Source: an uncultured Solirubrobacteraceae bacterium (GTDB lineage Bacteria; Actinomycetota; Thermoleophilia; Solirubrobacterales; Solirubrobacteraceae). Taken from it: DNA of 64,000 bases. Below are positions 4,335 to 27,778 of this stretch, in pieces. Position 1 is the stretch's first letter, and each line of letters begins with the position of its first letter. The notes beneath the pieces were generated by a model. It ran no database searches, was not told the DNA's origin, and saw only the letters and a list, made by a program, of their open reading frames with translations. Location: assembly GCA_964588985.1 (NCBI GenBank), contig CAZPQW010000005.1:102681-166680 (forward strand), given 5' to 3'. A program made the translations under genes and the position numbers.

Positions 4335-4413
4335 GTCGCAGATCCTCCGGTCGAAGCTTGTCGTGCTCTCGTGCAAACGGCACGCCGAGTTATAGGGAGA
4401 AGGGCGACGTGGC

Positions 4414-6486: not shown

Positions 6487-6592
6487 GGCGTGGCGTCCTT
6501 TCGTTCGGGGCCTGGCGGTGCTGTGCCTGCAAGCGTACGTGCTATCAACCCAAGCGCAACGCTTTCCACCATCTCGAACAAGGAGCCGCCAC

Positions 6593-6988
6593 ATGAGCAC
6601 CACCGAGCAGCTGGTCACGGGCGTCGACTTCGTCTCTGTACCCACCGGCGATCTCGCCGCCTCCGTCGAGTTCTACGGCGACACGTTGGGCCTGCGCCGC
6701 TCGGTGTACATGCCCGACCGCAACTTCGCGGAGTTCGAGACCGGCAACCTCACACTGAGTGTCGTTCACGCGGAGAAGATGGGGATCCCGCACTGCGTGA
6801 ACCAGAACGCGATCGCGCTGCACGTCGACGACGTCGAAGCGACCCGCGCGACGCTCGAAGCACGCGGCGTGAGCTTCCAGGGAGACACGTTCGACACGAG
6901 CGTCTGCCACATGGCGTTCTTCACCGACCCCTACGGCAACGCGCTGATGCTCCACCACCGCTACGCACCGCGCAACCCCGAGTCCTAG
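6593..6988 (+). CDS. VOC/glyoxalase family protein
   Basis: DLAASVEFYGDTLGL, ALHVDDVEA, FFTDPYGNALMLH. Confidence 0.88.
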   Translation: MSTTEQLVTGVDFVSVPTGDLAASVEFYGDTLGLRRSVYMPDRNFAEFETGNLTLSVVHAEKMGIPHCVNQNAIALHVDDVEATRATLEARGVSFQGDTFDTSVCHMAFFTDPYGNALMLHHRYAPRNPES

Positions 6989-7052
6989 ACGCACCTACAC
7001 GTCGCCACCGCGCCCTTATATTGAGCGGATGGCTGGGCCCGGACCATTGGAG

Positions 7053-7868
7053 ATGTCGCTCCTGCCGGGAGCGCGCGAGCTGCTCGACGCGCACGCCGCG
7101 GCGCTGCCCCAGCGCGACGATCTTTGCGGCGCGTTCTGCGGCGCGCTGGCGCTGAGCGCGGCGGGGTTCCGCGAGCGCGGCGGGGAGCCCGTAGATCAGG
7201 ACGCGGTGGGGCTGGCCGCGGGGAGCATCGTGTCGACAGCCGGCGCGCGCGATCCGGGCACGCTCCCGCACGGCGAACCGGGCCGGCGCGACTACCGCCT
7301 GGCGATCCCCGAGATCGAGGACGCCGACGTGTCCGGCACGACGTGCTCGGGTGTGATCGACGCGATCGCGGAGCTCTCCGACGGCGCGCTGGAGGCGATC
7401 CCTTTCAGCGGCCCGTGGACGGCGGAGACGCTCGGCGGCCTCTACGACGTGGCCGCCGAGCTGAAGCGCCCGGTGACGTTGATCGCGAACTTCGCCACCC
7501 ACCACCTGTGGGGCGGGTCCGCTCGGTTCGACCAGCTGCTGGGCTATCTGCTCGACGGCGAGCGAGCAGGGCCTGAGCCGGACTGGCGCGTGGGCCACTT
7601 CGCGTGCGTGTTCGGACGCGTGCGCGGGCCGCGCGGGAACCTTTACGGCGTCGCCGACACCTACCCCGCGCTCGGCGACCATGGCGTGCACATGCAGCCG
7701 CAGGAGCGTCTCGCGGCGGCGCTCGAGCGGCGCGACATGCCGGCGGGCGGGATGATCGTGGTGGCGTTTGCCGACGACGCGGGCGCGATCCGCGCGGGCG
7801 CGGGCGCCGTGGGACTGAGCGAGGGCCTGTGGGACAACGGGACCGTGACGCAGGCGACGCTCGGGTGA
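7053..7868 (+). CDS. Hypothetical protein, possible papain-like (Cys-His-Asp) enzyme
   Basis: PQRDDLCGAF...VGHF...VADTYP spacing resembles C39/phytochelatin-synthase-like catalytic motifs. Its stop overlaps the next start (GTGA). Confidence 0.6.
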   Translation: MSLLPGARELLDAHAAALPQRDDLCGAFCGALALSAAGFRERGGEPVDQDAVGLAAGSIVSTAGARDPGTLPHGEPGRRDYRLAIPEIEDADVSGTTCSGVIDAIAELSDGALEAIPFSGPWTAETLGGLYDVAAELKRPVTLIANFATHHLWGGSARFDQLLGYLLDGERAGPEPDWRVGHFACVFGRVRGPRGNLYGVADTYPALGDHGVHMQPQERLAAALERRDMPAGGMIVVAFADDAGAIRAGAGAVGLSEGLWDNGTVTQATLG

Positions 7869-9178
7869 GCGAGCGGGAGCTCGTATCGCTCGTCTGCTGC
7901 GACCTCGGCGCGATCGTGCGAGGACGCTCGCTGTTCTCGTCCGAGCTGACCGAGGCCGAAGCGTCGGGCATCGGCTGGGTGCCGGCGAACCACGCGCTCA
8001 CGCCGCTCGGCCCGGTGGCGGAGACCAACCCGTATGGGTCGACCGGGGATCTGCGCCTGCTGCCCGACCCCGCCACCCGGGTGCGTGTGGAGGAGGGCCC
8101 CGGCGGTGGCGCGCTGGAGCTACTGCTGTGCGACATCGTGGAGACCGACGGGCGTCCTTGGGAGTGCTGCCCGCGGCAGTTCCTACGCGAGGCGCTGCGC
8201 GAGCTGGAGAGCGAGATCGGCGGCCGGCTCGTGGCGAGCTTCGAGCACGAGTTTCAACTTCTAGAGGACTCGTCCGCTGCGCTCCCGTTCTCACTCGAGG
8301 CGCAGCGACGTGGCGAGCCGTTTGCCACGCGCGCGATGGGCGCGCTCACACAGGCGGGCGTGGAACCGGAGCGGATATTCCCCGAGTACGCGCCGCACCA
8401 GTTCGAGATTCCGGTGGCGCCGGCGGAGGGCGTCGCGAGCGCGGATCGTTCGGTGGTGCTGAGGGAGGTGGTGCGCGAGGTCGCGCGCCGTGAGGGGAAA
8501 CGCGCGAGCTTCGCGCCGCTGCTCGACGTGGCGCAGGCGGGCAACGGCGTGCACATCCACCTGAGCGTGATCGACCGCGATGGCGCGCCGTTGTTCTACG
8601 ACCCCGTGCGTCGCGCGCACCTGAGCGAGACGGGCGAGCGCTTCGCGGCGGGCATCCTCGCGCACGCGCACGCGTTGACCGCGCTCACGGCGCCGAGTCC
8701 GGTGTCCGCCACGCGCCTCCAGCCGCACCGCTGGAGCGCGGGCGCGATGTGCCTGGCGGTGCAGAACCGCGAAGCGCTGCTGCGAATCCCTCCGCTCGTG
8801 GAGCTGGCGGGCGCGGACCCCGCTCGCCAGCTGCGCCTGGAGTACCGCGGCGCGGACGCGGCGGCGAACCCCTACCTGGCGCTCGGCGCGCTCGTGCGTG
8901 CAGGGCTCGACGGGGTGCGCTCGCAGATGCCCGCGCCGCCGATCCTCGACTGCGACCCGGCGGAGCTGGAAGGACCCGAGGTGGAGCGCTTCGGTGTGGG
9001 CTCGCTGCCGGACTCGCTGGAGGAGTCGATGCGGGCGCTCACCGAGAACGCGACCGCGCGCTCGTGGATGGGGTCGCTGCTGTACGAGGCGTACGTGAGC
9101 GTCAAGCAGGCCGAGATCGAGGCGGCGCGCGATGTCGACCTGAAGGAGCTGTGCGCGCGCTATGCCGCGATCTACTGA
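7865..9178 (+). CDS. Glutamine synthetase-like gamma-glutamyl ligase
   Basis: SFEHEF, EYAPHQFEI, GNGVHIHLS, NREALLRIP, LEYRGADAAANPY. Confidence 0.9.
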   Translation: MSERELVSLVCCDLGAIVRGRSLFSSELTEAEASGIGWVPANHALTPLGPVAETNPYGSTGDLRLLPDPATRVRVEEGPGGGALELLLCDIVETDGRPWECCPRQFLREALRELESEIGGRLVASFEHEFQLLEDSSAALPFSLEAQRRGEPFATRAMGALTQAGVEPERIFPEYAPHQFEIPVAPAEGVASADRSVVLREVVREVARREGKRASFAPLLDVAQAGNGVHIHLSVIDRDGAPLFYDPVRRAHLSETGERFAAGILAHAHALTALTAPSPVSATRLQPHRWSAGAMCLAVQNREALLRIPPLVELAGADPARQLRLEYRGADAAANPYLALGALVRAGLDGVRSQMPAPPILDCDPAELEGPEVERFGVGSLPDSLEESMRALTENATARSWMGSLLYEAYVSVKQAEIEAARDVDLKELCARYAAIY

Positions 9179-10352
9179 CGTCGTGCTCGAGCGGCTGCTC
9201 GAGGGGATCGAGCGAGAGAGTCCGCGCGCCGTGGAGCTGCGCCACCGGCTGCACTCAGGGCCCGAGTTGGCGGGCGCCGAGAAGCGGACCGCGGCGATGG
9301 TCGCGGCGGAGCTGCCGGTGGCGAGCGAGACGGCGGCGGCAACAGGGCTGCTCGCCCGGGTGGGACCGGCCGATGGCACGCCGATCGCGGTGCGCGCGGA
9401 GCTGGACGGGCTGCCGGTGCGCGAGCGCACGGGCGCGGCGTTCAGCGCGAGCGGCGAGACGATGCACGCGTGCGGGCACGATGTGCACATGGCAGCGCTT
9501 GTGGCGCTCGCCCGCGCCGCATACTCAATTGAGGAGGATCTACCCGCCCCGCTGCTCGCGGTGTTCCAGCCGAGCGAGGAGGTGCACCCCTCCGGTGCGA
9601 AAGCGCTCGTCGAGGGCGCGCTCGCGGACGCGGCGCCGAAGGCGGTCCTCGCCGCGCACGTCCATCCGGAACTGCCGTGGGGCGAGGTGGCGCTCGACCC
9701 TGGGGCTGTGAACGCGTCGTTCGACGGGTTCGAGATCGTCGTCGAGGGCGAGCCCTCACACGGCGCCTACCCGCACCTGGGACGCGACCCGATCCTCGCG
9801 CTCGCGCAGGTGGTGGTCGCGCTGCACGCGCAGGTCGCGCGGCGGATGGACCCGATGCATCCGACGGTGCTGACGGTGGGCGTGGTGGAGGGCGGGAGCA
9901 CGGAGAACGTGATCCCCGAGCGCGCGAGCGCGCGGGGCGCGCTGCGGTCGCTGCGGGCGGAGGACCGCCTGGCGTTGCGTGAGCTGGTTGAGGAGGTCGT
10001 GACGGGTGTGACAGCCGCGCACGGCTGCCGCGGCGGCGTGTCGTTCGTGGCGGGGGAGCCGGTGTTGGAGAACGACCCGCGCATCGTGGCGGAGGCGTGC
10101 GGGCTGCTCGCCAGTGCCGGCCTTGCACCAGCCCCCGAGTGGCGCTCGTGCGGGTCGGACGACTTCGCCTTCTTCGGCGCGCTCGCGCCGGTGGCGATGG
10201 CCTTCGTGGGGCTCGACGGCGCGGCGGGCTTTCGGTCGCGGCCGCTTCACCACCCGGAGCTGCTCCCGCCCGACGAGGCGGTTGATGCGATCGCGCGCGT
10301 GCAGGCTGTGCTGTATGTGGCGGCGGCGCACTCCTTGCGGCAAGCCGACTGA
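9162..10352 (+). CDS. M20 family amidohydrolase
   Basis: RAELDGLP, MHACGHDVH, FQPSEE, SHGAYPH, GSDDF. Confidence 0.92.
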   Translation: MPRSTDVVLERLLEGIERESPRAVELRHRLHSGPELAGAEKRTAAMVAAELPVASETAAATGLLARVGPADGTPIAVRAELDGLPVRERTGAAFSASGETMHACGHDVHMAALVALARAAYSIEEDLPAPLLAVFQPSEEVHPSGAKALVEGALADAAPKAVLAAHVHPELPWGEVALDPGAVNASFDGFEIVVEGEPSHGAYPHLGRDPILALAQVVVALHAQVARRMDPMHPTVLTVGVVEGGSTENVIPERASARGALRSLRAEDRLALRELVEEVVTGVTAAHGCRGGVSFVAGEPVLENDPRIVAEACGLLASAGLAPAPEWRSCGSDDFAFFGALAPVAMAFVGLDGAAGFRSRPLHHPELLPPDEAVDAIARVQAVLYVAAAHSLRQAD

Positions 10353-15357: not shown

Positions 15358-16548
15358 TCACTCCTCGTCAAACGTCCCCAGCGGATGGTTCTCGCTCACG
15401 AACTCAGCGAACAGCGGCACGGTGAAGTCAAGCTGGCCTCGACGCGGCGCCCAGATCAAACCCTTGTTGATGAGGGCGTCCCGGTGGATCGAGACCCCGC
15501 GCTGGTCCTTCGCTCCGTAGGCGTGGGCGATGTCTGCCGAGCGATACGGCGGACCCTCGACGGACGCCATCGCGGCGAGGTAGCGCTGCTCGGCGTCGGT
15601 TGCCAGCTGGAAGCGAGTGCCGAAGAAGTTGCGGGCCAGCGATTCCGAGACGATCTCGCGGACGGTGTCGACGTCGGCGGTGGTGATCGGAGAGGTCTCA
15701 GCATGGTTCCACAGCTCGAGGCCGTATTCCTGGATGAAGTACGGATAGCCGGCGGCTTCCTCCACGACCTGCAGAGCGGCGGGCTCCTCGTAGCTGACGC
15801 CGCGCGTGGCCGCCGGCGCGATCAGGGCGGAGCGGGCGGCGGGAGGGCTGAGACGACCGAGCTCGTGGTACTGGAATAGGCGATCGGCGTAGGGCTTGGC
15901 GGACATCAACCGAGTCTGCAGGTCCGGCAGGCCCGCAGCGACCATCGCCACGGGGAGCGAATTGCGGCTGACGGCCTGAAATGCGATGCACAGCGCGGCG
16001 AGTGAGGCGGAGTCGAGATTGTGCATCTCGTCAATCAGGAAGAGAGCGCCGGCGCCTGTCGTCTGGGCGACCTCACCGATCTCCTTGATCAGATCCGTGA
16101 GGTCCTGCTCCGGATCGCCCGAGTCGGCGATCCCGGTTGCGGCCTGGACGTCGAGCTTGAGCTGCACGCCCGCTGGCGCCACGATGCTGAACGCCTTGAC
16201 CACACCCAGTGCGCGATCTACACGGCTCTTGATCCGATGCTTGCGGCTCATCTCGCGCAGCAGGCGTGCGGCCATCCGCGCGAACGTGACACGGAAGTCG
16301 GGTTGGGATCCGACCTCTTGGACATCGGTAGTCGCCCACCCAGCCTCTGTTGCGAGCACATCCAGCTCCATCAGCAGCACCGTCTTGCCCACTCCACGCA
16401 GGCCCGAGTAGATCAGGCTACGCTCGTAGCGTTTGTCGGCGAGACGTTCGAGCAGAGATTGGAAGTTCTCCAGCTCGTCGCCGCGACCGCTGAGAGTCGG
16501 CGGCTTGCGCCCGGCTCCGGGGGTATAGGGGTTCTCGCGCTTCTGCAT
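15358..16548 (-). CDS. AAA-type ATP-binding protein with probable C-terminal winged helix
   Basis: NPYTPGAG..P..LSGR, Walker A GLRGVGKT, Walker B FLIDEMH, GYPYFIQEYG, C-terminal RDALINKGLIWAPRRG. Confidence 0.85.
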   Translation of the reverse strand: MQKRENPYTPGAGRKPPTLSGRGDELENFQSLLERLADKRYERSLIYSGLRGVGKTVLLMELDVLATEAGWATTDVQEVGSQPDFRVTFARMAARLLREMSRKHRIKSRVDRALGVVKAFSIVAPAGVQLKLDVQAATGIADSGDPEQDLTDLIKEIGEVAQTTGAGALFLIDEMHNLDSASLAALCIAFQAVSRNSLPVAMVAAGLPDLQTRLMSAKPYADRLFQYHELGRLSPPAARSALIAPAATRGVSYEEPAALQVVEEAAGYPYFIQEYGLELWNHAETSPITTADVDTVREIVSESLARNFFGTRFQLATDAEQRYLAAMASVEGPPYRSADIAHAYGAKDQRGVSIHRDALINKGLIWAPRRGQLDFTVPLFAEFVSENHPLGTFDEE

Positions 16549-16566
16549 TGGAGGCCACTTTCTGCA

Positions 16567-16672
16567 GCTTTCTATGGACCGATGATTACTCGCTAGAAAG
16601 CTATAGGGATTCGTCTGGCCGCTCAAGTCATGCAGCTGCCGAGGCTAGCCCCTATCAGGCTTTCTATGGACC
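16567..16672. repeat. 14-bp direct repeat pair with a partial inverted copy, upstream of the ATPase gene
   Basis: GCTTTCTATGGACC at 16567-16580 and 16659-16672. TAGAAAGC (inverted copy of the first 8 nt) at 16594-16601. Confidence 0.7.
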
Positions 16673-17059
16673 CTTCTTTACTTTAGAGAAAGACATAGAC
16701 TGCCCCCTGCTTCCCCGCATGCGCGCCGTGGCGGCGCACTGATCGTCGCTCGCGACCCGGTGCATTCGCACTGGTTCTCCACCGGCGGCGTCCTCGCGTA
16801 GGCTCCGCCCCAGCCCATGATTCGGCTCTAGGTCAACGGGAGCGCTCTCGAAGGACAAGCGCCCAAGCCAGACAGCCACGCTTGCAGCCAACAAGAGTAG
16901 TGTCGTCTCGGGGGTTGCCGGCGACTTGAACGCAAGCGCTACCACGGGCGGCAGTACACAGAATCCGACGCGCCCCGGTAGAAGTCGCCGATCTTCAACT
17001 CGATCGAGCAACTCCGTCTTGCGTGTCACTATCTTCGCTAGAAGAGTCGACACCCACAT
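16664..17059 (-). CDS. Hypothetical small membrane protein
   Basis: RBS GGAGG before ATG 17059 and two hydrophobic stretches. No recognisable family. Confidence 0.35.
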   Translation of the reverse strand: MWVSTLLAKIVTRKTELLDRVEDRRLLPGRVGFCVLPPVVALAFKSPATPETTLLLLAASVAVWLGRLSFESAPVDLEPNHGLGRSLREDAAGGEPVRMHRVASDDQCAATARMRGSRGQSMSFSKVKKGP

Positions 17060-17361
17060 GGCCAGCCCCCTCCAACAGATAAGCCTTCTGTAGATTTGTG
17101 GAAAAGAGAACGCTTCGACATACACGACCACCCTACTCAGCGCACCGATCATGGCGCACGCGAACCCCGCCTGCCGGCGAGTCGGAAGCGCACAGTGCGA
17201 TGCACGCCCCTCAACCCGTTGATCAGCAAGCTTAGGTGATTGTCGTAGCAGCATATTGCACTCAGATGAGTTTTGGTCGGACGACTTCTCGCGCAACCAG
17301 TTCTTGGTTTGCTTCAGGTTAGTTAATTAGGCCACTAACTAGCCACGGGCGGCCCTGCTAT

Positions 17362-17566
17362 CTAGTTAAGTGAAGCTAACTAACTAGTCATGCTTGTTTT
17401 AGTGTTAACCGGTTGTACTATTACTAGTTAAGTGAAGCTAACTAACTAGTCTTAGTCTTGCTTGTTTTGGTGTTAACCGGTTGTACTATTACTAGTTAAG
17501 TGAAGCTAACTAACTAGTCTTAGTCTTGCTTGTTTTGGTGTTAACCGGTTGTACTATTACTAGTTA
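17362..17566. repeat. AT-rich tandem repeat, 3 copies (62, 68, 68 bp) plus a partial fourth, internally palindromic
   Basis: Unit CTAGTTAAGTGAAGCTAACTAACTAGTCTTAGTCTTGCTTGTTTTGGTGTTAACCGGTTGTACTATTA starts at 17362 (shorter variant), 17424, 17492 and 17560 (partial). 24/68 GC. Confidence 0.95.
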
Positions 17567-18191
17567 GATACCAACTAGTCTCATTAAGACTCTTGTTGGC
17601 TTACAGTTAGACTCAAGATACTCTCGCAAACAACCGCGGGGGCCTCAGCGAGGGACGCTAAAGCTATTCCGCGACTTCCGTCAGCGTCGTCATCGCTAAG
17701 TGCGCCTTTTGATGCAATAGTGCCCCATGATTTCTACTATACGTATGCTACCCGCTCCGCGCAAGTCGAGTTTCTGACTTTCAAGGCCCGTCGCTAACGC
17801 AACCCCGGCCCCTACGCCTCAGCACTGGCCGTGCGTCCACTTTCGAAGCGGTGCCATGTCTCGTCCCGCCTCGGATCACCCCGCACGTTTCCGAGCGTGG
17901 CATGAACCCCCGCAAAGTCGATCTTGAGCTAATCCGCGCAAGAGGCGCGGTCATCAGCGGAGGAGCTGCTGCCAGCAGTTACGCACCGAGCAGCCGCGGT
18001 GGTATCTGGACTTGTTCTGCCTGGCGCGGTAGGGTCGAGTGCGACTGGGCCTCTTGAGTGCCGAGACTACTCGGCCCTATGTCCGCCGCGCTGCACATAC
18101 CCGGATAAGCGATGGGAAGGAACTTCGGATGCCCTTCACGCTCGAGCTGCACCCCCATGGGCCATCGCGCGCACCAGCTCCTCTCGCCTCG

Positions 18192-20099
18192 ATGCACACC
18201 CTCCTAGCCGCGGCGCTCGCCGTGCTCGCCTGCCTGCTGCTGCCCGCGTCGGCGACCGCGATTGCGCCCCCCGCGTTTGTAACCGAATGGGGCTCGCTGG
18301 GATCTGGTGAAGGGCAGTTCAATTTGCCCACCTTCATCGCGCTTGCGCCGAACGGAAGCGTATACGTCACGGACACAGACAACTACCGAGTCGAGGAGTT
18401 CGACCCTGACGGACACTTCGTCACCGCATGGGGAACGCGCGGGGAAGGACCCGGGCAATTCACCTACCCAGCGGGAATAGCCATAGGCCCTTCGGGTGAT
18501 GTGTACGTGGGCGACATCGACACCTCTCGGATCGAGAGGTTTAGTCACAACGGAGCATTCATTAGCGAGTGGGGCGAATACGGAGAAGGCCCAGGCCAGT
18601 TTGAGGGAGTTCTTGGGCTCGCTGCGGGCCCATCCGGCGACATCTACGCCGCCGACAAAGGAGACAACCGTGTGGAGAAGTTCAGTGCCAACGGAGTGTA
18701 CCTTGGCGAGTGGGGGCAGAAAGGCGAAGCTGCGGGAGACCTCAGTAGTCCAGTGTCGGTCGCGACTGACGCCCAAGAAAACGTGTATGTCACGAGCTAC
18801 GCCACATTTGGGATCCAGAAGTTCACCTCGACTGGACATTACCTGAGCCGCTGGGATCCCGCCAAAGGCGGCATCACGTTCGCAAACGGCCTCGCAGTGA
18901 GCGCGAGCGGGCAAAGCTATGTCGATACTCCCAACGACGTGATCGAGGAGTTCGGCACGACGGGGACCCCGCTCACAGAATGGGGCGAATACGGCGCTCA
19001 CCAAGGCCAGTTCGCCAACTCGCTCGGCCTGGCGGTCGACCCGGCGGCAGACGTATATGTGGTCGACCAGGGCAACAACCGAGTGGAGAAGTTCCGTTTT
19101 GATACCACGCCGAGCGTACTCACCGGCACGGGTGTGGCAAGCTCGACGACTACGGCGATGATCTCGGCGACTGTCAACCCGAACGGCGTTGAAGTAACGT
19201 CCTGCGAATTCGAATACGGTACGAGCACCAGCTACGGGTCGCGGATTCCGTGCGCTACGGCACCTGGGTCGGGTGAATCCCCCCTTCCAGTGAGTGCCGA
19301 GATCACGAGCCTCGCGCCGAACACCACGTACCACTTTAGGGTCGTGGCGAGCAACAGCGCAGGCTCGGGCGAAGGACTCGATGCCCGACTCACCACGCTA
19401 GGGCCCCCGGACTTCGGGCGCTGCGTCGCGGTGGTGGCAGAAAAGATCGGTGCCAAAACCGTTTACCACGGCGAGTTTACGACGCCCAAATGCACTGTGA
19501 CGAGCGTGAAGAAGGCTGGCAAGTACGAATGGGAAGCCGGCGTCGTGAACTCAGCCTTCATCCTCAAAGCTGGCGCGCTTGCGCTCTCCACACCATCCGG
19601 GCGCTCGGTCACGTGCGCCACCGAGAGCGGTGGCGGCGACTACCTCGGCAGCAAGGAAGTGGCCGACGTAACGCTGCGGTTCACGAAGTGCGCATCGCAG
19701 GGACAAAACTGCTCGACCGTTGGGTTCGTGGAAGGCGACGTGGAAAGCTCCCCGCTGGAAGGCAGCCTGGGATGGATCTCGCGCGCGGCGAAGACTGTGG
19801 CACTCGACCTCTATCCAGCCGGGAACAAAGGCACCATCCTCGAATACCGCTGCGGAGCGGAAGCAACGGTCATCGTGAGCGGCTCGGTGCTGGTAGGGCT
19901 GAAGACGGGCAAGATGCAGGTGTCGGAAACCCTCAAATACAAAGCCTCCCACGGCGTGCAGGGCATCCGACAGCTCGAAGGCGAGCCCGAAGACGTGCTG
20001 ATCGCGTCGACCGCAGGCCCCGCACCGGAAACAACCGGCCTGTCTGCGAACACGATCATGGTCGACGAAGAAGAAGTGGAGCTCAACCCAGACGCGTAA
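18192..20099 (+). CDS. Secreted NHL-repeat beta-propeller protein with Ig/FN3-like domain
   Basis: Signal peptide (LLAAALAVLACLLLPASATA), repeated WG..GEGPGQF..P.GIA....G.VYV.D..N.RVEKF, then LAPNTTYHFRVVASN. Alternative start 18129. Confidence 0.85.
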   Translation: MHTLLAAALAVLACLLLPASATAIAPPAFVTEWGSLGSGEGQFNLPTFIALAPNGSVYVTDTDNYRVEEFDPDGHFVTAWGTRGEGPGQFTYPAGIAIGPSGDVYVGDIDTSRIERFSHNGAFISEWGEYGEGPGQFEGVLGLAAGPSGDIYAADKGDNRVEKFSANGVYLGEWGQKGEAAGDLSSPVSVATDAQENVYVTSYATFGIQKFTSTGHYLSRWDPAKGGITFANGLAVSASGQSYVDTPNDVIEEFGTTGTPLTEWGEYGAHQGQFANSLGLAVDPAADVYVVDQGNNRVEKFRFDTTPSVLTGTGVASSTTTAMISATVNPNGVEVTSCEFEYGTSTSYGSRIPCATAPGSGESPLPVSAEITSLAPNTTYHFRVVASNSAGSGEGLDARLTTLGPPDFGRCVAVVAEKIGAKTVYHGEFTTPKCTVTSVKKAGKYEWEAGVVNSAFILKAGALALSTPSGRSVTCATESGGGDYLGSKEVADVTLRFTKCASQGQNCSTVGFVEGDVESSPLEGSLGWISRAAKTVALDLYPAGNKGTILEYRCGAEATVIVSGSVLVGLKTGKMQVSETLKYKASHGVQGIRQLEGEPEDVLIASTAGPAPETTGLSANTIMVDEEEVELNPDA

Positions 20100-20253: not shown

Positions 20254-20300
20254 ATGGCGAGACCGGGACTCGAACCCGGGACACCACGATTTTCAGTCGT
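20254..20300 (-). repeat. att site: 47-bp duplication of the tRNA-Phe 3' half
   Basis: ATGGCGAGACCGGGACTCGAACCCGGGACACCACGATTTTCAGTCGT is identical to 27705-27751. Confidence 0.95.
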
Positions 20301-20607: not shown

Positions 20608-21789
20608 TCAGAAGGCGACAATGTATCTGGGGGTGAAGGGACGGTTGGTGGGACGTGCGGCGGCAACGCGGTCGATCCGGTAAGTGCGAGTTTCGCCCTG
20701 GCCGTTGACGGCGAGCAGCACGAGGTTGCCAGCGCGAGTGCGCCGGAGTTCATAGGGCTCGACTAGGCGGCGTCCTGGGTATCCCTCGGCGGGGCGGTAG
20801 TCGATCTCTACCTTCAGGCGGTTGGTGCCGGCATAGCGGATCAGCTCCAGGGGTGCGCCCTGTCGCCAGGAGGCGATCGCGTGTGGAGGGCGCCACGTAT
20901 CGAGTTGGTCTCTGGAGGGCGCGCGGCGAAGCCTGCGACGCGTCTGCGTGCCTGCGAGCCAGGCGAACACTTCCTCCAGCGCCTCCCAGAACATCTCGAA
21001 TGGGGGGAGCGGCCGCGGTAGCTGGTGGCCGAGCATGTTCTCCCACTCGCGCTCGATCTCCTGGGCGTAGGGCGAGGTGCGGATCGAGTCGGCGTCGGGG
21101 ACATTCACGCCGGCGTGGGCACACTTGGCAGCGAGGACCGTGCGTACGCGCTCGGCTCGGCCGATCAGGTCGGGGTGGCGGTGCATGTGTACGACGTCGT
21201 AGAGATCGCGCGGGCGACAGCGAGTAGCGAGCGCGCGCGTCTTCTCAGCTAGCAACTCCGTCGGTGAGTAGCACAGGACGCCGACGCCGGGGAGTGGCTG
21301 GTCGCTGTATGAGTGCACAATTATGCGGCGGTGCGGCCGTTCGATGAGCACCTCATCGCTGGTCAGATCGAACTTAAGCTTTGGGAGAGTCCCACGCGGG
21401 GCGTTCGGTCCGCGGTAGGCGATCCGCGCCTGTGTGGTGGGCTGGCCGCGTAGGTTGCGTCGCCGCGCGAATGTGCGCTGGTCGATCTCCAACTCGATGC
21501 CCGTTTCGCGCACGAGCCAGTCCGAGACTCTCTTGAAGATCTCGATCATCTCGTCGAGCTCCTCCGGGCCGCCGTCGACGACGGTGAAGTCGAGATCCTC
21601 AGAGAATCGGTAGGTCTCGTAGTAGCACTTGCGCAGGCAGGTACCGCCCTTGAAGATCCAGGTGTCGGCGAGCGCGGACTCTGCAGAGATCGCAGCAAGC
21701 ACCCAGCCGAGCACGTAGTCCTTCTCGATCACGCCGATGTCGAGTTGCCACTCGCCACGGAGTCGCATCAGCTCCTGCTTGGCGATCAC
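20608..21789 (-). CDS. AbiEii-family nucleotidyltransferase toxin with C-terminal WYL domain
   Basis: IEKDYVLGW, FKGGTCLRKCY...RFSEDLDF, ELLAEK, RPRDLYD. C-terminal EIDY...RRLVEPYEL...RTYRIDRV. GTGA overlap with the antitoxin. Confidence 0.85.
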   Translation of the reverse strand: MIAKQELMRLRGEWQLDIGVIEKDYVLGWVLAAISAESALADTWIFKGGTCLRKCYYETYRFSEDLDFTVVDGGPEELDEMIEIFKRVSDWLVRETGIELEIDQRTFARRRNLRGQPTTQARIAYRGPNAPRGTLPKLKFDLTSDEVLIERPHRRIIVHSYSDQPLPGVGVLCYSPTELLAEKTRALATRCRPRDLYDVVHMHRHPDLIGRAERVRTVLAAKCAHAGVNVPDADSIRTSPYAQEIEREWENMLGHQLPRPLPPFEMFWEALEEVFAWLAGTQTRRRLRRAPSRDQLDTWRPPHAIASWRQGAPLELIRYAGTNRLKVEIDYRPAEGYPGRRLVEPYELRRTRAGNLVLLAVNGQGETRTYRIDRVAAARPTNRPFTPRYIVAF

Positions 21790-22595
21790 GACGGCTCCTG
21801 CGGCTCGAGCACCACGTTGGCGCGCAGCCGCCATGCAGGCACGCGCGGCCCCATACGGGGCCCGTCGGGGTCAAGCAGCGAGATGCCGCTGGAGAGCTCC
21901 GCACGGCACGCCGCGATCAGCTCGGGGGCGCCCCAGCCCTGCGACTCCAGCAGGAAACCCAGGCGCTTAAGCACCGCGCGGTTGCCGAGCCGCAGCGCGT
22001 ACTCCACCAGGCGCTCACCCTCGTGCTCATCCAGATACGCCCGCAAGATCTCTGCGGCGTGGCGGATACCACCGCCGATTCGCGGTGCGTCGAGGATCTC
22101 CACTACCGTCCGTGCGGGGTCGGCGAACAGCATCCGCACCTCCTCCTGCCACGCTGTCTCCAAGCCCCACTCGAGCGTGTCCTCTGCTACGTGCATTAGT
22201 AGGTACTCGGCGTCCAGCAGGCTCGCCGTCGCGGCGCGCACACGCTGTGCGGTCTTCACGACCGTGGTGCGGAACACCTGCTCGGTCAGACCCCAGTGGC
22301 GCGCTGCCGTGAACCCGCTGAAGTAGCACGGCGACCACACCGCGCTCGCCAACACCAACGTGTCCTGTGACCAGCTTCGCGGAGGAGCCTCGACTGGCAC
22401 GGCGATATACAGGCCCCGCCGCACCCTACGCAGCCACCCCTGTTCCGCCCAATGCGCGAGCTTTCGCGCCGCGACCCTCGCGTCCACACCTAGCACGCGT
22501 GCGGCGATCTCTGGAGAGACAAACCTGCGATCGACAAGCACCGCCGACAATTCGGCACGTCCAGCGCCTGAGATTCCACGACCATCTTGCGTCAT
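21786..22595 (-). CDS. AbiEi-family (type IV TA) antitoxin / transcriptional regulator
   Basis: wHTH GWLRRVRRGLY, YFSGFTAARHWGLTEQV, ADPARTVVEILD, AVLKRLGFLLE. Confidence 0.88.
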   Translation of the reverse strand: MTQDGRGISGAGRAELSAVLVDRRFVSPEIAARVLGVDARVAARKLAHWAEQGWLRRVRRGLYIAVPVEAPPRSWSQDTLVLASAVWSPCYFSGFTAARHWGLTEQVFRTTVVKTAQRVRAATASLLDAEYLLMHVAEDTLEWGLETAWQEEVRMLFADPARTVVEILDAPRIGGGIRHAAEILRAYLDEHEGERLVEYALRLGNRAVLKRLGFLLESQGWGAPELIAACRAELSSGISLLDPDGPRMGPRVPAWRLRANVVLEPQEPS

Positions 22596-22738: not shown

Positions 22739-23878
22739 TTAGGTCACAAGTGGTCCCACCTCTACATAGCGGTCGAACCAGTCGAGGTAGTCAGCTACAC
22801 ACGCCGCGACATCCTCAGAGCGGGCCCAGAAATGCGTCGGAAGCTTGTCGCTGTCGAAGATCAGCTTCGTGCCCTCCTGCGCGGAGATCACCACTCGGCG
22901 TGGGCGGCCGAGAGCGTAGCCGAGCTCCATTGTGCAGTTGGGGCGCATGCCAGTGAGGTCGACGAGAACCACGCCGGCGCGATGCAGCCGCCGGAAGATC
23001 TCGACGTTCATGAACATGCTCTCTGGCGTGCCTAGACCCATCTGCACCGGCGCGTAGCCGCGCTCGGAGATAGCTGGGGTCACGACCTCCGAGAAGAACC
23101 ACTCGACCGCAGCGTGGTCGTGATTGCTCGGGTCGAGCAGTCGGACGTAAAACGCGCTCGGCGGCATCAGGTCTTCGAGCATCCGCACGGTCGCTTCGGC
23201 GAGCGAACTCGGGTCCGACTCGGCTTCTAGCCGGAGAGCCTGTAGACGAGCAGTGTCGCCACCGGCGCCTGGCGCCAGCCTGAATAGTGCGCCCGGATCG
23301 CCTAGAGCCTTCTCATGTAGCGCTCGGCTACCTCCAGAGCCATCGTCGTTGAAGGCGCCCAGCTGCGCCCACACGGGAACCACCGGCTTGCCGTCGCGCC
23401 AGTAGAGCTCGGCGAGATGCTCCACGCCAGCCCCGCCGCCGAGCACGACCAGGATGTCGCCATGGGAGAGCTGGCGCTCGCGGATGATGCCCGCCATACG
23501 CCACCCCGGCGGAGTCGTGACGAGCTCGAAGTCGCTCCGCGCACAACAACCCTCCCAGAGCTCGCGCCGGCCTGCAGGGATCCTGTCGAGCCCGCGCTGG
23601 CTGGCGACGCCGACGAACCGACGCGGTCGACGTGGCGGCCACCCTTCGGCTGGGTCGGGCAGCGCCGCGACACTCGCGAGCGCAGTCCAGTCGAATGTGG
23701 CCGGCAAGCCGGACTCGGAAAGCGGCTCGCCGCCGGCACCCAGCACGAGACCAGCTCCCCGGGCGGCGAGTCCGGTGGCGAGGCTGCTGACGAACGCGTG
23801 CGCCCGTGTGAGAAGCGCGGCATCGCATGTCGCCGCTGCGCTGCCCGTGAGGTGCACGCGTCGTCCGGCGAGGCTCAC
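22739..23878 (-). CDS. CBASS effector: SLOG-like domain fused to nucleoside 2-deoxyribosyltransferase-like domain
   Basis: N-terminal HLTGS...DILVVLGGGAGVEH...GKPVVPV. C-terminal VLVDLTGMRPNCTMELGYALG. Last gene of the CBASS operon, with GTGA overlap. Confidence 0.72.
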   Translation of the reverse strand: MSLAGRRVHLTGSAAATCDAALLTRAHAFVSSLATGLAARGAGLVLGAGGEPLSESGLPATFDWTALASVAALPDPAEGWPPRRPRRFVGVASQRGLDRIPAGRRELWEGCCARSDFELVTTPPGWRMAGIIRERQLSHGDILVVLGGGAGVEHLAELYWRDGKPVVPVWAQLGAFNDDGSGGSRALHEKALGDPGALFRLAPGAGGDTARLQALRLEAESDPSSLAEATVRMLEDLMPPSAFYVRLLDPSNHDHAAVEWFFSEVVTPAISERGYAPVQMGLGTPESMFMNVEIFRRLHRAGVVLVDLTGMRPNCTMELGYALGRPRRVVISAQEGTKLIFDSDKLPTHFWARSEDVAACVADYLDWFDRYVEVGPLVT

Positions 23879-24783
23879 GCTTTGCCTTCGTCCATCGCCG
23901 GCGAGGGCTCGAGTTCCGCGCACGCCGCGAGCAGATCCTCCGCAGTCAGCGCTCGCTCGGCGAATGCCCGGGCTACTGCCGCCGGGACAAGGCGTGTCTG
24001 GACGTCGGAATACGTGTAGCCGGGCCGCCCGTCGCGTGGACCCGTCGCCGCAACGAGGTCGTCGAGCGCATGATCGGCTATGTCGACGCCCCGCAGGGTG
24101 GCACGAAACAGTTCGCGGCGCTCCTGCTCAGACGGGCGATCGAACTCCTCGATCAAGGCCGCGCGCCGGATGACCGCAGGGTCGAGCGCTCCGAATCGGT
24201 TCGTGCAGAGCACGATCAGTAGACGCCCATTCAGTCGGCGGGCGTCGTCGATCTTCTGGATCACAGTGTTGACGCCGACACGGTCCTCGTGGTGAGCCCG
24301 CTCCGCGCCGCGGTTGAACGCGAGCGCATCGCCCTCGTCAATGATCAGCGTGACGAACCGGGTTCGGCCCGCCAGCTCAACCGCCTCGGCGAAGGCGTCG
24401 CCGATCAGCGTGCTCATCTCGCCCACATGACCGACGCCGCGAACGCGCGTCGAGAGCTTCAGTAGGAAACCATCGGAACCGAGCATTCGGGCAAGACCGT
24501 CCGCTGCTGCTTCAGCGCTCGCGGTCTTACCAGTGCCAACGTCACCGTGAAAAATCGCGAGGGGATAGCGGTCGGCGATCGCACCGAGCAGCCCAGGAGC
24601 TCCATCGTGGTAACGCCGAGCCCACGCCCGCAGCCCATCTGCGTCGGCGAGCAAGCGAAGCTGGGCGCCGAGACGACGAAAGCGAGCGTCGAAGCCAACG
24701 AGCCGGCCGGCGCGGTCGGCAAGAGTCTCGTCCGGTATCTCGAGTTTCAACTCAAGCGCGCCCTGCCCCTCTCCTGGACTCAT
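23875..24783 (-). CDS. cap6: TRIP13/Pch2-like AAA+ ATPase (CBASS Cap6)
   Basis: FHGDVGTGKT, KLSTRVRGVGHVGEM, IIDEGDALA, HHEDRVGVN, CTNRFGALDPAVIRRAA. Confidence 0.9.
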   Translation of the reverse strand: MSPGEGQGALELKLEIPDETLADRAGRLVGFDARFRRLGAQLRLLADADGLRAWARRYHDGAPGLLGAIADRYPLAIFHGDVGTGKTASAEAAADGLARMLGSDGFLLKLSTRVRGVGHVGEMSTLIGDAFAEAVELAGRTRFVTLIIDEGDALAFNRGAERAHHEDRVGVNTVIQKIDDARRLNGRLLIVLCTNRFGALDPAVIRRAALIEEFDRPSEQERRELFRATLRGVDIADHALDDLVAATGPRDGRPGYTYSDVQTRLVPAAVARAFAERALTAEDLLAACAELEPSPAMDEGKA

Positions 24784-25277
24784 TGGTAGCTCGTCCGCTC
24801 GAGGCCGTAGGCACGGCTAGGGTACCGACGGTCAATGGACCCGTTGAGAGCGCCGTAGCCCTCGAAGTTGCGATGGCCCCACCCCTTGAGGTGATCTTCC
24901 TCGAACTTCGTCTGCGTGGTAGTCGACAGCTGATCCCAACGCGCGTTGTATTCGACGTAGAGCTTCAGTACGTCGCCGTCCTCGTGGTCCCAATACATGT
25001 CTCCGGGCCGATCGGCGGACCATGCTCCCGCGCTCGTAGAAACGCGGTACACGGCTGCTTTCTTCACCTTACCCAGCGCGGATGCAAGCTGAATGTGCAC
25101 GGCGCCGAGGTACTCCTGCTCGGCGATGACTTTGACCTGCGCCGCCGTTTCCTCCACGTCCTGCCCAGTCCGCAGCCCGGTCCACTCACTCACGATTCTG
25201 AAATCCGCAACCCAGGAAGCGAACACGCGCTGAATATCTTCGCGGTTGTAGGTATGGGTGTTGCTGTCCGTCGCCAT
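24780..25277 (-). CDS. Bacterial HORMA domain protein (CBASS Cap7-like)
   Basis: About 165 aa between CD-NTase and TRIP13. Thr/Ser-rich N-terminus, EYLGAV, DRPG and C-terminal DRRYPSRAYGLERTSY resemble E. coli HORMA. Alternative GTG start 25289. Confidence 0.82.
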   Translation of the reverse strand: MATDSNTHTYNREDIQRVFASWVADFRIVSEWTGLRTGQDVEETAAQVKVIAEQEYLGAVHIQLASALGKVKKAAVYRVSTSAGAWSADRPGDMYWDHEDGDVLKLYVEYNARWDQLSTTTQTKFEEDHLKGWGHRNFEGYGALNGSIDRRYPSRAYGLERTSYQ

Positions 25278-25285
25278 CGCTCCGG

Positions 25286-26230
25286 TCACTCGATCGCGAA
25301 GCCCGGACCGAAGAGCTCCTTCCAGAGCTTCTCGGTCTCCCCTTTGAACTGAAGCCCCTGAGCGAGAGTCAGCGTCTCGTAGCCGGTGCGCGCAGCCGCG
25401 ACGAGCGCATCAAGCTCCCGCCTCGTGATGCGCGCGGCAACATTGTTCTCGGCGTTCGCGGGGTCGAGGATCACCACCGGGTCGTCGAAGGCCTCTAGAT
25501 TGCCCTCTCCCCAGGTCACTCCATTGGTGAGATCGCGCACAATGAACAGAAGCAGGCGGCGAAGTCCCTCTTCGAGTCCGCTTGCCGCGCCGTCGCGGTC
25601 GATCAGGTAGCTGCAAAGCAGCTCAAGATGAAACGACTGGACGCCAGCGAGCTCCTTCCAGTGGCGCCAACGCTTAGCCATGCGCAGGGTTGGAGCTAGG
25701 AATACGTCCTTTGCGGAGTGGCTGCGGAAGTGCTCGAGATGGACCTTGACGCTGGTCTTCACGCGGTCGCCGGTGCGAGAGTATTGGTAGCCGTAGTTCG
25801 CGTCGTCGTCGAGTGAGACGATCGGGACTAGATCGACCTCTAGACCGGTGCCCTTGAAGACGACCTCGAAGATGCGGTCGCCGGAGTCGTCGAAGTCGTC
25901 GGGGCTCTTCTGGGGATACGCGGCTTCGAGGAGCTGCTTGATCAGTTTCTGGAGGTCCGCGACGTCGAAGTTCTCGGGATCGTCGACCTCGAAGTAGACG
26001 CCGACGTCTCCGTCAACGGGTTTGCCCGCGCGCGGGCGGTTGCTTGTGCCCTTCTCCAGCGATCCGGCACGGCGGAACTTCTTGATTCTGTAAGCGCCGT
26101 CCTCGTGTACCTTCGCTTCGAGCTTCTCTAGCAGCCGTCCAATCTGCTTGCGGAGCTCGTTGCGCTGATCGCCTGGGAGGGCGAGCTTGCCGGCTACGTA
26201 GTCGCCCAGTTGTTTGTCCGTTAGCTTGAT
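25286..26230 (-). CDS. CBASS oligonucleotide cyclase (CD-NTase, CdnC-like), apparent ATC start
   Basis: The frame stays open 156 codons upstream of the ORF-track call: IKLTDKQLGDY...RAGSLEKGT...DGDVGVY...LEVDLVPI...SFHLELL...ILDPANAENNVA...WKELFG (314 aa). Confidence 0.9.
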   Translation of the reverse strand: MKLTDKQLGDYVAGKLALPGDQRNELRKQIGRLLEKLEAKVHEDGAYRIKKFRRAGSLEKGTSNRPRAGKPVDGDVGVYFEVDDPENFDVADLQKLIKQLLEAAYPQKSPDDFDDSGDRIFEVVFKGTGLEVDLVPIVSLDDDANYGYQYSRTGDRVKTSVKVHLEHFRSHSAKDVFLAPTLRMAKRWRHWKELAGVQSFHLELLCSYLIDRDGAASGLEEGLRRLLLFIVRDLTNGVTWGEGNLEAFDDPVVILDPANAENNVAARITRRELDALVAAARTGYETLTLAQGLQFKGETEKLWKELFGPGFAIE

Positions 26231-26820
26231 TGCTGATCACCACCGGGCCACTGCCACAGTCGGTTGAAGATTTCGGCCTGCTCGATTGCATCGTCGAGCG
26301 CGTTGTGGGTGTGCGGATGCGAAGCCTGCAACTCAGCGGGCAGGTCGTTGCGCCCGGCGTCGTCCATGATCACGTGCGCCTTCTGGTGGTACATCGTCTT
26401 GATGTCCAGCGCGCCTGAGAAGCCAAACGGCGACTCTCCTACGAACCGTACGAAGTACCAGTGCAGAAACATCCAGTCGAACACCACTGGGTAGCCGACG
26501 AGGACCGGCCGTGCACCCCCCGCCCGCTCGGCCTGGGCAGTGACCCAGTCGACTGCGTCACGCATTGCGGCTTCGGGCTCGGCTCCGTCTCGTGCAAGCG
26601 CCGCGCGATCGAGGCGTGCCGCCTTCAGCGCCGCCGGCTCGAAACGTGCGGCAATCGGCTTCAGCTCTCGATAGAGGGTCTGTTTGCTCGGAGCATGGCT
26701 CGTGAACGCCTCTCCGTCGAAGGTGGCGGCAACCGCTAGTCCGAAGGCGAGCATCGAGAATTCTCCCGGGATCGGGCCGTCGGCCTCAATATCAGCGGAT
26801 ATGTAAATGTCGGGCACCAT
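26221..26820 (-). CDS. DEDDh 3'-5' exonuclease (Cap18-like)
   Basis: SADIEADGPIPGEFSML, FDWMFL, LDIKTM, HTHNALDDA. First gene of the CBASS operon. Confidence 0.85.
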   Translation of the reverse strand: MVPDIYISADIEADGPIPGEFSMLAFGLAVAATFDGEAFTSHAPSKQTLYRELKPIAARFEPAALKAARLDRAALARDGAEPEAAMRDAVDWVTAQAERAGGARPVLVGYPVVFDWMFLHWYFVRFVGESPFGFSGALDIKTMYHQKAHVIMDDAGRNDLPAELQASHPHTHNALDDAIEQAEIFNRLWQWPGGDQQSS

Positions 26821-26964: not shown

Positions 26965-27423
26965 TTGCCACGCGTGGACCCTGATCTTCAGCTCGCTGAT
27001 CCTGCCGAGATTGCCGTTGCCCAGGAGTACCTAAGCCTGAAGGAACGGATCGAGGAGGCCCGCACAAGAGCCGATCGACTGCGAACGCTCGCCGAGCATC
27101 TGGACGAGCAGGTCAGTCGGGACGAGCACATGCTCCACGACCTCGAAGGCACTCTCGGGCTAGCAGCACAGCTGCAGATCGAACAGCTAGATCGTGAGCT
27201 GGGGGGAAAGCGGCTACAAGAGATCGCGATCGCCGTTCTCGAGCGCGAGATACAACCGGGTCAAGCAGTCCACTACCGCGACTGGTATGCGCTGCTTTGC
27301 GCCGCTGGCTACCGCGCCCGTGGGAAGGACCCGCTGGCCAGCTTCCTGGCTCAGATCAACCGCGCCGAGCAAGTCGAGCCCATCGGTGGACGTTCAGGCC
27401 GCTACCGCCTTCGTGCGGCCTAG
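26965..27423 (+). CDS. Coiled-coil plus winged-helix protein, divergent from CBASS
   Basis: Heptad-rich N-terminal half. C-terminal AVLERE...VHYRDWY...GKDPLASFLAQINR...GRYRL resembles a HARE-HTH-like wHTH. Confidence 0.6.
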   Translation: MPRVDPDLQLADPAEIAVAQEYLSLKERIEEARTRADRLRTLAEHLDEQVSRDEHMLHDLEGTLGLAAQLQIEQLDRELGGKRLQEIAIAVLEREIQPGQAVHYRDWYALLCAAGYRARGKDPLASFLAQINRAEQVEPIGGRSGRYRLRAA

Positions 27424-27621: not shown

Positions 27622-27705
27622 GGCACGAAAATGGCCCCAAAACGCGCCCGATAGGCTGACCGTAAGCACAACAAAAACCTAACTGTTAGCAGGCAAAACA
27701 GGAAA

Positions 27706-27778
27706 TGGCGAGACCGGGACTCGAACCCGGGACACCACGATTTTCAGTCGTGTGCTCTACCAGCTGAGCTATCTCGCC
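27706..27778 (-). tRNA. tRNA-Phe(GAA)
   Basis: GGCGAGATAGCTCAGCTGGTAGAGCACACGACTGAAAATCGTGGTGTCCCGGGTTCGAGTCCCGGTCTCGCCA, a canonical cloverleaf. Confidence 0.97.

Follow-up and report, generated by a model that had tools for sequence, protein, structure and literature searches.

The question raised by the operon at positions 22739–26820 (minus strand) of a 64,000-nucleotide stretch of DNA from an uncultured Solirubrobacteraceae bacterium (the whole analyzed stretch is referred to below as the window) is whether its five genes constitute an intact anti-phage system, and what its effector, a fusion of a nucleotide-sensing domain with a domain at the border of two enzyme families, would do to an infected cell. 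A sequence-only reading of this DNA had proposed a type III anti-phage signaling system based on cyclic oligonucleotides (CBASS) with an effector that joins a SLOG-like domain to a nucleoside 2-deoxyribosyltransferase (NDT)/TIR-like domain. Family, profile, and structure comparisons agree with both parts of this proposal, and we put at about 0.7 the probability that the locus holds an intact CdnC/HORMA/TRIP13-type operon of type III CBASS with a signal-gated N-glycosidase as effector, presumably serving in defense against phages.

Organization of the operon

The interval is filled exactly by five open reading frames (ORFs) of the ORF listing, all on the minus strand, and each junction between them overlaps. 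The stop codon of the TRIP13 gene and the start codon of the effector gene share the sequence GTGA at 23878, the stop of the HORMA gene and the start of the TRIP13 gene share ATGA, the stop of the cyclase gene and the start of the HORMA gene share GTGA, and the start of the cyclase gene overlaps the end of the exonuclease gene by 10 nt. Since the frames fill the interval and all junctions overlap, the five-gene coupled operon of DEDDh exonuclease, CD-NTase, HORMA, TRIP13, and effector seen in the earlier reading is real; gene order, coupling, and the family of each gene are directly established.

The first gene (26221–26820, minus strand) encodes a Cap18-like DEDDh 3′–5′ exonuclease of 199 residues, which matches the PADLOC model PDLC00753 Exonuclease (E = 4.3e-44) and the Pfam family Rv2179c-like (28.7 bits) and is 35% identical (E = 7e-34) to Cap18 of Escherichia coli upec-117. 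The His and Asp residues of the HxxxxD motif are kept as H172 and D177, the latter aligned with D165 of Cap18, and the protein belongs with the Cap18 class, as a DEDDh exonuclease that is a homologue of the E. coli enzyme and is encoded inside a CBASS operon. The second gene (25286–26230, minus strand) encodes a CD-NTase, a CdnC-like oligonucleotide cyclase of 314 residues. Its full frame scores 245.3 bits against the NCBIfam family CBASS_cyclase_a (cutoff 200), a 158-residue piece of it matches the PADLOC cyclase model PDLC00808 (E = 4.2e-35), and it is 33% identical (E = 5e-51) to CdnC of upec-117. Residues D73 and D75 align with the catalytic D73 and D75 of CdnC, which, in the CapW preprint, are the residues mutated in the catalytic-dead control.

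The third gene (24780–25289, minus strand) encodes a Cap7-like HORMA protein of 169 residues, identified by Pfam bacHORMA_1 (85.3 bits, cutoff 35.6, E = 5.8e-24) and PADLOC HORMA (E = 1.2e-23) and 28% identical to the HORMA protein of upec-117. The fourth (23875–24783, minus strand) encodes a Cap6-like, TRIP13-like AAA+ ATPase of 302 residues that matches PADLOC TRIP13 (PDLC00914, E = 2.7e-107) as well as Pfam AAA, is 48% identical (E = 6e-94) to Cap6 of upec-117, and contains the Walker A and Walker B motifs GDVGTGKT and IIDEGD. The last gene (22739–23878, minus strand) encodes the effector, 379 residues followed by a stop codon, which combines a TPALS SLOG domain with an NDT/TIR-like domain and matches PADLOC PDLC00733 and Pfam PF18178. 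A search of NCBIfam returned no family for either the HORMA protein or the effector.

Type III CBASS is reportedly defined by the combination of a CD-NTase, HORMA, TRIP13, and an effector. All of these are found here, namely a cyclase with its catalytic acidic residues, HORMA, TRIP13, and an effector with a nucleotide-sensor domain, and the type III assignment made earlier is borne out by NCBIfam, Pfam, and PADLOC matches that together cover all components. For its host genome, the operon is an ordinary, intact defense island.

Initiation codon of the cyclase

A mechanical ORF list gives the cyclase a length of only 158 residues, for want of an ATG, GTG, or TTG start. The frame itself is open from 26236 to 25286 (316 codons), with an in-frame TGA at 26239–26237; the codon ATC at 26230–26228 is the third past this TGA, and the next ATG, GTG, or TTG lies 156 codons downstream. 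A truncated cyclase of 158 residues was ruled out by the 316-codon open frame and by the relatives that start at the codon aligned with this ATC. Among 19 related loci (individual loci are denoted below by L numbers), that codon is ATG in seven, GTG in three, TTG in three, and ATC in six (L001, L002, L004, L005, L014, and L018). The effectors of the ATC-start loci are 53–98% identical to the window effector, some of them only 53–54%, the frames of the latter loci being intact. Because relatives carry ATG, GTG, TTG, or ATC at this position, and because the frames are intact despite effector identities as low as 53–54%, ATC is best read from these alignments as a conserved initiation codon of the cyclase and not as a lesion. 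The purine-rich stretch GGTGGTGA located just upstream, together with the overlap with the end of the exonuclease gene, fits coupled initiation of the cyclase, and an ATC start coupled to translation of the exonuclease may keep cyclase output low. In L004 and L005, the cyclase begins at ATC behind the same TGGTGA although the exonuclease gene has been replaced.

Structure of the effector

The effector is listed mechanically as 22739–23923, while its homologues of 377–379 residues begin at the position of the GTG at 23878, which is most likely the true start (379 residues), rather than 23923. Residues 16–374 match positions 4–362 of the 388 in the PADLOC profile PDLC00733 ‘Effector TIR’ (E = 9.3e-74, 246.6 bits). 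The AlphaFold2 model, calculated with 51 sequences, consists of two confident domains, with a mean predicted local distance difference test score (pLDDT) of 89.1 and a predicted template modeling score (pTM) of 0.90. The two-domain fold, as well as the conserved residues described below, is directly established. A single-sequence phmmer search of the effector against the Protein Data Bank (PDB) gave nothing meaningful, the best match being a dehalogenase with E = 0.28.

The N-terminal half (residues 1–239; 23162–23878, minus strand) is a TPALS (Cap17-like_N) SLOG domain (PF18178, E = 3.4e-41) and is the presumed sensor of the cyclic oligonucleotide. In structure comparison, its fold is closest to that of the SLOG domain of ThsA, and it has the Rossmannoid fold and the glycine-rich loop that characterize SLOG, with a GGGxGxE stretch that is invariant. 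The PADLOC PN-superfamily model matches only residues 17–251 of the effector, Pfam detects no match to PF01048 (PNP_UDP_1) at E ≤ 10, and in BLASTP against E. coli Cap17 (28% identity over 198 residues) only residues 8–199 are aligned. Membership in Cap17 was rejected, since the PNP domain is absent and the alignment is limited to the N-terminal half; no full-length match of the effector to a characterized Cap protein was found. The sequence-only reading had presented the system as a contrast to Cap17 CBASS, a view that has to be revised: the TPALS domain (PF18178) that makes up the SLOG half is also found at the N terminus of Cap17, and the system is therefore a sibling of Cap17 CBASS.

The C-terminal domain (residues 240–379; 22742–23161, minus strand) is a second Rossmann-like domain in the AlphaFold2 model, resembling either the NDT/DNPH1/MilB (DrHyd) enzymes or TIR, and is presumed to be an N-glycosidase. 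Folded alone, it reaches a pLDDT of 93.7. Foldseek places human DNPH1 first (6.3e-6), followed by MilB (2.7e-5) and nucleoside 2-deoxyribosyltransferases (~1e-4), with the first TIR domain, that of SPARTA, at rank 21 (1.9e-4) and SARM1 at rank 36. A profile of 21 C-terminal domain sequences, compared with PDB sequences, yields E values of 0.016 for Rcl/DNPH1, 0.32 for Cap12, and 0.49 for PycTIR. Of the same 21 domains, 14 match Pfam Nuc_deoxyrib_tr (PF05014; best E = 3.4e-5, with the reported bit scores below the cutoff of 28.8), two match CAP12-PCTIR_TIR (PF10137) weakly, and none matches TIR or TIR_2. A lead from a language-model atlas also points to the DrHyd side, and the domain has both the fold of DrHyd and a Glu at the catalytic position; in PHROGs, it matches only phrog_3634, a family of unknown function. 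On the strength of the Foldseek, profile, Pfam, and atlas results, we place it on the TIR/DrHyd border, leaning toward DrHyd (NDT/DNPH1/MilB), and the PADLOC label ‘TIR’ appears not to be borne out by the TIR models. The earlier description of the effector as a SLOG domain joined to one of NDT/TIR-like type, in which a Glu is conserved, is thus upheld by PF18178 and by the structure and profile searches.

The motif DLT..RPN..MELGYA, pointed out from the sequence alone, is indeed present, and its residues D307, N314, and E318 are invariant in the family (all 51 and all 21 aligned sequences). An acidic residue occupies position 293 in 50 of the 51 and in 19 of the 21 sequences, and F243 is invariant in the close effector set. 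Glu318 (codon at 22925–22927, minus strand), the catalytic residue predicted from conservation and from the Rcl/DNPH1 alignment, falls, in the profile comparison, opposite the YELG-motif Glu of Rcl/DNPH1. A single position that varies among three Rcl chains (Ala, Asn, or Asp) marks a mutated Asp 24 residues before the Rcl Glu, and we take this pair to be D69 and E93. A triad, F28/E85/E107, is described for the NDT-like retron toxin RcaT in a preprint. The pattern of conservation would fit a catalytic N-glycosidase and not a degenerate scaffold.

Proposed mechanism and alternative explanations

HORMA and TRIP13 are said to control the cyclase in systems of this kind, and for the operon described here we infer from the characterized family the nature of the signal and of the substrate, the way the effector is activated, and the defense phenotype. 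Upon infection, HORMA would activate the CdnC-like cyclase, with TRIP13 keeping both inactive as long as the cell is uninfected. The cyclase product, a cyclic oligonucleotide, would then bind to the effector's N-terminal TPALS SLOG domain, much as the SLOG domain of ThsA binds 3′ cyclic ADP-ribose (3′cADPR). The bound signal would turn on the C-terminal NDT/TIR-like domain, with a shift in oligomeric state as the probable route, and this domain would cleave an N-glycosidic bond with the aid of Glu318 and the acidic residue at position 293. The substrate would most likely be NAD+ and less likely a (deoxy)nucleoside monophosphate ((d)NMP) or triphosphate ((d)NTP); its loss would starve the infected cell and abort phage replication. 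Thus described, the effector is most likely a cyclic-oligonucleotide-gated N-glycosidase that depletes NAD+ or another nucleotide, and its gating, substrate cleavage, and contribution to defense are predictions. NAD+ is ranked first because the characterized TIR effectors of CBASS are all NADases, as stated in a review, and because NDT-like retron effectors use NAD+: the RcaT effectors, according to a preprint, hydrolyze it and auto-ADP-ribosylate through an F/E/E triad.

Several observations weigh against this interpretation. The nearest solved sequence relatives of the C-terminal domain, DNPH1 and MilB, act, to judge from PDB titles, on mononucleotides and not on NAD+, and Cap17, which has this sensor domain as well, cleaves ATP according to the Cap17 preprint. 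The fold search does not separate TIR from NDT, with MilB about 1 Z ahead and NDT level with TIR at about 12. The window effector itself scores only 13.7 bits against Nuc_deoxyrib_tr (cutoff 28.8) and has no match to the Pfam TIR models PF01582, PF13676, and PF10137 at E ≤ 10. The non-canonical ATC start of the cyclase could mean weak expression or none. In the close relative L002, the effector (6001–7140 of that locus) is cut short by a stop at codon 84 and ~1.2 kb of inserted DNA (~3197–4381) interrupts the cyclase, lesions which indicate that the system decays in some lineages. Finally, a catalytic-dead Cap18 left the defense of E. coli against phage lambda unaffected, as reported in the CapW preprint.

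With DNPH1 and MilB as its nearest solved relatives, and with a sensor that in Cap17 drives the cleavage of ATP, the C-terminal domain has a serious rival substrate in mononucleotides or NTPs. It would then be an N-glycosidase of the DNPH1/MilB/NDT type depleting dNMPs, NMPs, dNTPs, or ATP, and not NAD+, which we regard as possible, though somewhat doubtful. DNPH1, MilB, and NDT outrank every TIR domain in sequence profiles and in Foldseek, an acidic residue is present 25 positions before Glu318, resembling the D/E pair of Rcl, the sister effector Cap17 that shares the sensor cleaves both ATP and dATP according to its preprint, and a section heading of the Ec86 preprint, which concerns an NDT-like effector, reads ‘depleting adenine and its derivatives’. 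Against these points, NDT-like effectors of retrons are reported to use NAD+ in the preprint on them, the family is labeled TIR by the PADLOC curators, TIR structures lie within ~1 Z of the best match, and all NDT-family model matches of the window effector fall below the Pfam threshold. Should the output domain be a DrHyd N-glycosidase that strips bases from the mononucleotide/NTP pool when the signal binds to SLOG, and not a TIR NADase, which we consider tentative, CBASS would possess a nucleotide-depletion chemistry distinct from both the TIR NADases and the PNP-type Cap17, type III and type IV systems would share a single module, and ‘TIR’ would be the wrong database label for this effector class. 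An activity other than plain depletion, in which the domain makes a second signal of the cADPR type or ADP-ribosylates a target or itself, is improbable: some TIR and DrHyd enzymes do cyclize NAD+, according to a review from the Aravind laboratory, and RcaT, in its preprint, auto-ADP-ribosylates, with catalysis alone being insufficient for toxicity, whereas the operon is without a downstream receptor or effector gene, the other genes of its island being an AbiE pair and a small unknown ORF, and in 32 of 35 loci the protein is placed where a CBASS operon has its effector.

It is more improbable still that the SLOG half is the enzyme, acting as a LOG-like N-glycosidase, while the C-terminal domain is regulatory or structural. 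Such an assignment could appeal to the invariant GGGxGxE stretch, but the invariant Glu153 is replaced by Ser in Cap17, the best structural match, the SLOG domain of ThsA, is non-catalytic and ligand-binding, the C-terminal domain has an invariant D/N/E set of its own, and the toxic activity of Cap17 maps to its C-terminal domain according to the preprint. There is also little likelihood that the operon as a whole is silent or decaying, its cyclase start having been lost by a change of ATG to ATC so that no signal is made. The lack of ATG, GTG, or TTG in the first 156 cyclase codons and the broken effector and cyclase of L002 would suggest so, but ATC stands at a codon that is ATG in seven relatives, GTG in three, and TTG in three, is kept in six of 19 loci over the range of 53–98% effector identity, and is followed by an intact frame with its catalytic Asp residues; the upstream GGTGGTGA and the overlap with the exonuclease gene fit coupled initiation.

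Comparison with known systems

The locus can be compared with the Cap17 CBASS of upec-117/KTE188, with which it shares the cyclase clade, HORMA, TRIP13, a 3′–5′ exonuclease, and the N-terminal TPALS sensor (identities of 33% for CdnC, 28% for HORMA, 48% for TRIP13, 35% for Cap18, and 28% for the N-terminal domain of Cap17). The principal difference is in the output, an NDT/TIR-like domain in the window effector and PNP_UDP_1 in Cap17. Unlike in the upec-117 system, there is neither a CapW regulator nor the Cap19 gene with three transmembrane segments in the window island, and all five genes are located on one strand with overlapping junctions. The CapW preprint reports that the upec-117 CBASS protects against phage lambda and that this protection needs CdnC and Cap17; the cleavage of ATP and dATP by Cap17 and the location of its toxic activity in the C-terminal domain come from the Cap17 preprint. 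Judged by its gene content and domains, the window operon is a type III CBASS of the Cap17 type in which another output domain has taken the place of PNP.

The window effector is a member of the PADLOC CBASS ‘TIR’ effector family, with no structural difference. It differs from ThsA, in which the SLOG domain is C-terminal and binds 3′cADPR from a TIR protein (PDB titles), in that its SLOG domain is N-terminal, its partner is a CD-NTase, and its output is not SIR2, with an identity of only 18%. In Cap12 (TIR-SAVED) and TIR-STING, the sensors are SAVED or STING and not SLOG, and the C-terminal domain of the window effector scores better against DNPH1, MilB, and NDT than against the TIR effectors; TIR-SAVED and TIR-STING are the only TIR fusions in CBASS given in the review. 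DNPH1/Rcl, MilB, and the NDTs have 7–18% identity to the C-terminal domain and sub-threshold Pfam scores, while the invariant Glu aligns with that of Rcl. DNPH1, MilB, and NDT are stand-alone proteins and RcaT is fused to a DNA-binding domain, and none of them is gated by a SLOG sensor. According to its preprint, RcaT shows that an NDT-like fold can serve as a defense toxin using NAD+.

The combination of the Cap17 sensor with a different catalytic domain amounts to a natural domain-swap experiment, in which a shared signal input might be set against two different output chemistries. The identity of the substrate would show whether the boundary between the TIR and NDT folds predicts depletion of NAD+ as opposed to nucleotides, and would also settle the database label ‘TIR’ for this effector class.

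Distribution of the effector family

A search with the full-length effector found 365 clusters at E ≤ 1e-3 among 8000 candidates scored; all of the 120 matches listed carry PF18178 and most are 377–382 residues long. With the C-terminal domain alone, 471 representatives at 50% identity were found, 137 of them at E ≤ 1e-10, most being proteins of ~380 residues with the domain at ~240–380. The N-terminal partner of the domain, scanned in 26 representatives, is PF18178 in 17, TIR_2 in three, and PrpR_N in one. In the set of P0253, P0258, P0268, and P0262, the domain follows a bona fide TIR_2 in three proteins (~260–276 residues) and PrpR_N in one. Its occurrence behind TIR_2 and PrpR_N indicates that it is a module distinct from canonical TIR and reused in other architectures.

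The effector family spans at least eight phyla. Titles of 35 effector loci include Solirubrobacterales, Gaiellales, Acidimicrobiia, Streptosporangiaceae, Dehalococcoidia, Acidobacteriota, Gemmataceae, Rhodothermales, Longimicrobium, Zoogloea, Roseateles, and Bradyrhizobium. The effector is found in a TRIP13-type context in 24 of these loci and in a QueC/TGT/cyclase (type IV CBASS) context in eight, and the remaining three are incomplete or without context. Its presence in both type III and type IV contexts makes it a portable CBASS output module, and the type IV relatives match the same PADLOC model, PDLC00733. The type IV loci (L016, at 6001–9947, L020, L022, L023, L025, and L027–L029), with QueC/Cap9-like and TGT/Cap10-like genes and a cyclase of another clade, come from Dehalococcoidia, Thermoanaerobaculia, and Acidobacteriota, and in L027–L029 a Cap18-like exonuclease is attached to the TPALS-NDT-like effector.

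The SLOG-NDT/TIR effector is an already catalogued architecture (PADLOC) and not a new kind of system. The sequence-only reading had called it a little-characterized effector class and had overlooked or overstated two points, since the fusion is catalogued and the family has hundreds of members. A literature search, with subscription journals outside its coverage, found no experimental study of a TPALS-TIR/NDT effector. With 471 clusters at 50% identity in at least eight phyla, the class ranks among the larger ones of CBASS effectors without a biochemical study in that search.

Two 252-residue proteins, P0007 and P0008, have as their first residue the internal Met at which the 252-residue ORF left in L002 also starts and, by this coincidence, probably come from similarly broken relatives. 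L002 also has 2.2 kb of additional DNA separating the effector from AbiE.

The Cap18-like exonuclease

The Cap18-like exonuclease adjoins the effector in 24 of the 35 effector loci, comprising 21 of 24 loci of type III and three of eight of type IV. In the reverse direction, a TPALS effector lies within 7 kb in only 21 of 80 exonuclease loci. In eight of the other 59 exonuclease loci, no match to cyclase, HORMA, or TRIP13 was found at the strict threshold of E ≤ 1e-12 among 50 ORFs of the plus strand, the only strand searched. A specific tie of the exonuclease to TPALS effectors was dropped on the basis of the 21 of 80 loci and the eight loci without a CBASS gene, and the link is one-way at best. 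In L004 and L005 (~2347–3630), the effectors of which are 87% identical to that of the window, unrelated sequence stands in place of the exonuclease gene, so that the exonuclease is dispensable for retention of the operon. It is an accessory gene.

The genomic island and its neighborhood

The operon is located in a 7.45-kb island bracketed by perfect 47-nt direct repeats at 20254–20300 and 27705–27751, the second of which is the 3′ part of the gene for tRNA-Phe (27706–27778, minus strand). In addition to the CBASS operon, the island contains an AbiEi/AbiEii pair directly downstream of the effector and an ORF at 26965–27423. The AbiEii toxin, with a C-terminal WYL domain, is encoded at 20608–21834 (minus strand; PADLOC, E = 1.9e-132), and the AbiEi antitoxin at 21786–22595 (minus strand; PADLOC, E = 1.2e-68). 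The AbiE pair travels with the CBASS effector in the close relatives L001–L006 and in L019. L001 carries this island too, at 96.7% DNA identity and extending up to the repeat, with another distal flank and two changes in its distal repeat. A search of 40 relatives for the 554-nt left flank of the island, made to locate an empty tRNA-Phe site, gave no match, and family scans of the window proteins revealed no integrase in or beside the island.

The ORF at 26965–27423 (plus strand, 152 residues) is divergent from the promoter region of the CBASS operon and lies next to the tRNA-Phe gene. It has a weak PADLOC match (C3a168, E = 0.0018), no Pfam or PHROG family was found for it, and it is conserved at the DNA level in L002–L005; it may encode a regulator or a recombination accessory protein. 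Beyond the island, three tandem copies of a 68-nt AT-rich unit (17385–17588) lie within a stretch of 52–55% GC content at ~16500–18000, where the surrounding DNA has 60–70% GC. This stretch, near the genes for an AAA_16 ATPase (15358–16626) and an NHL-repeat protein (18039–20099), may be another mobile or variable segment.

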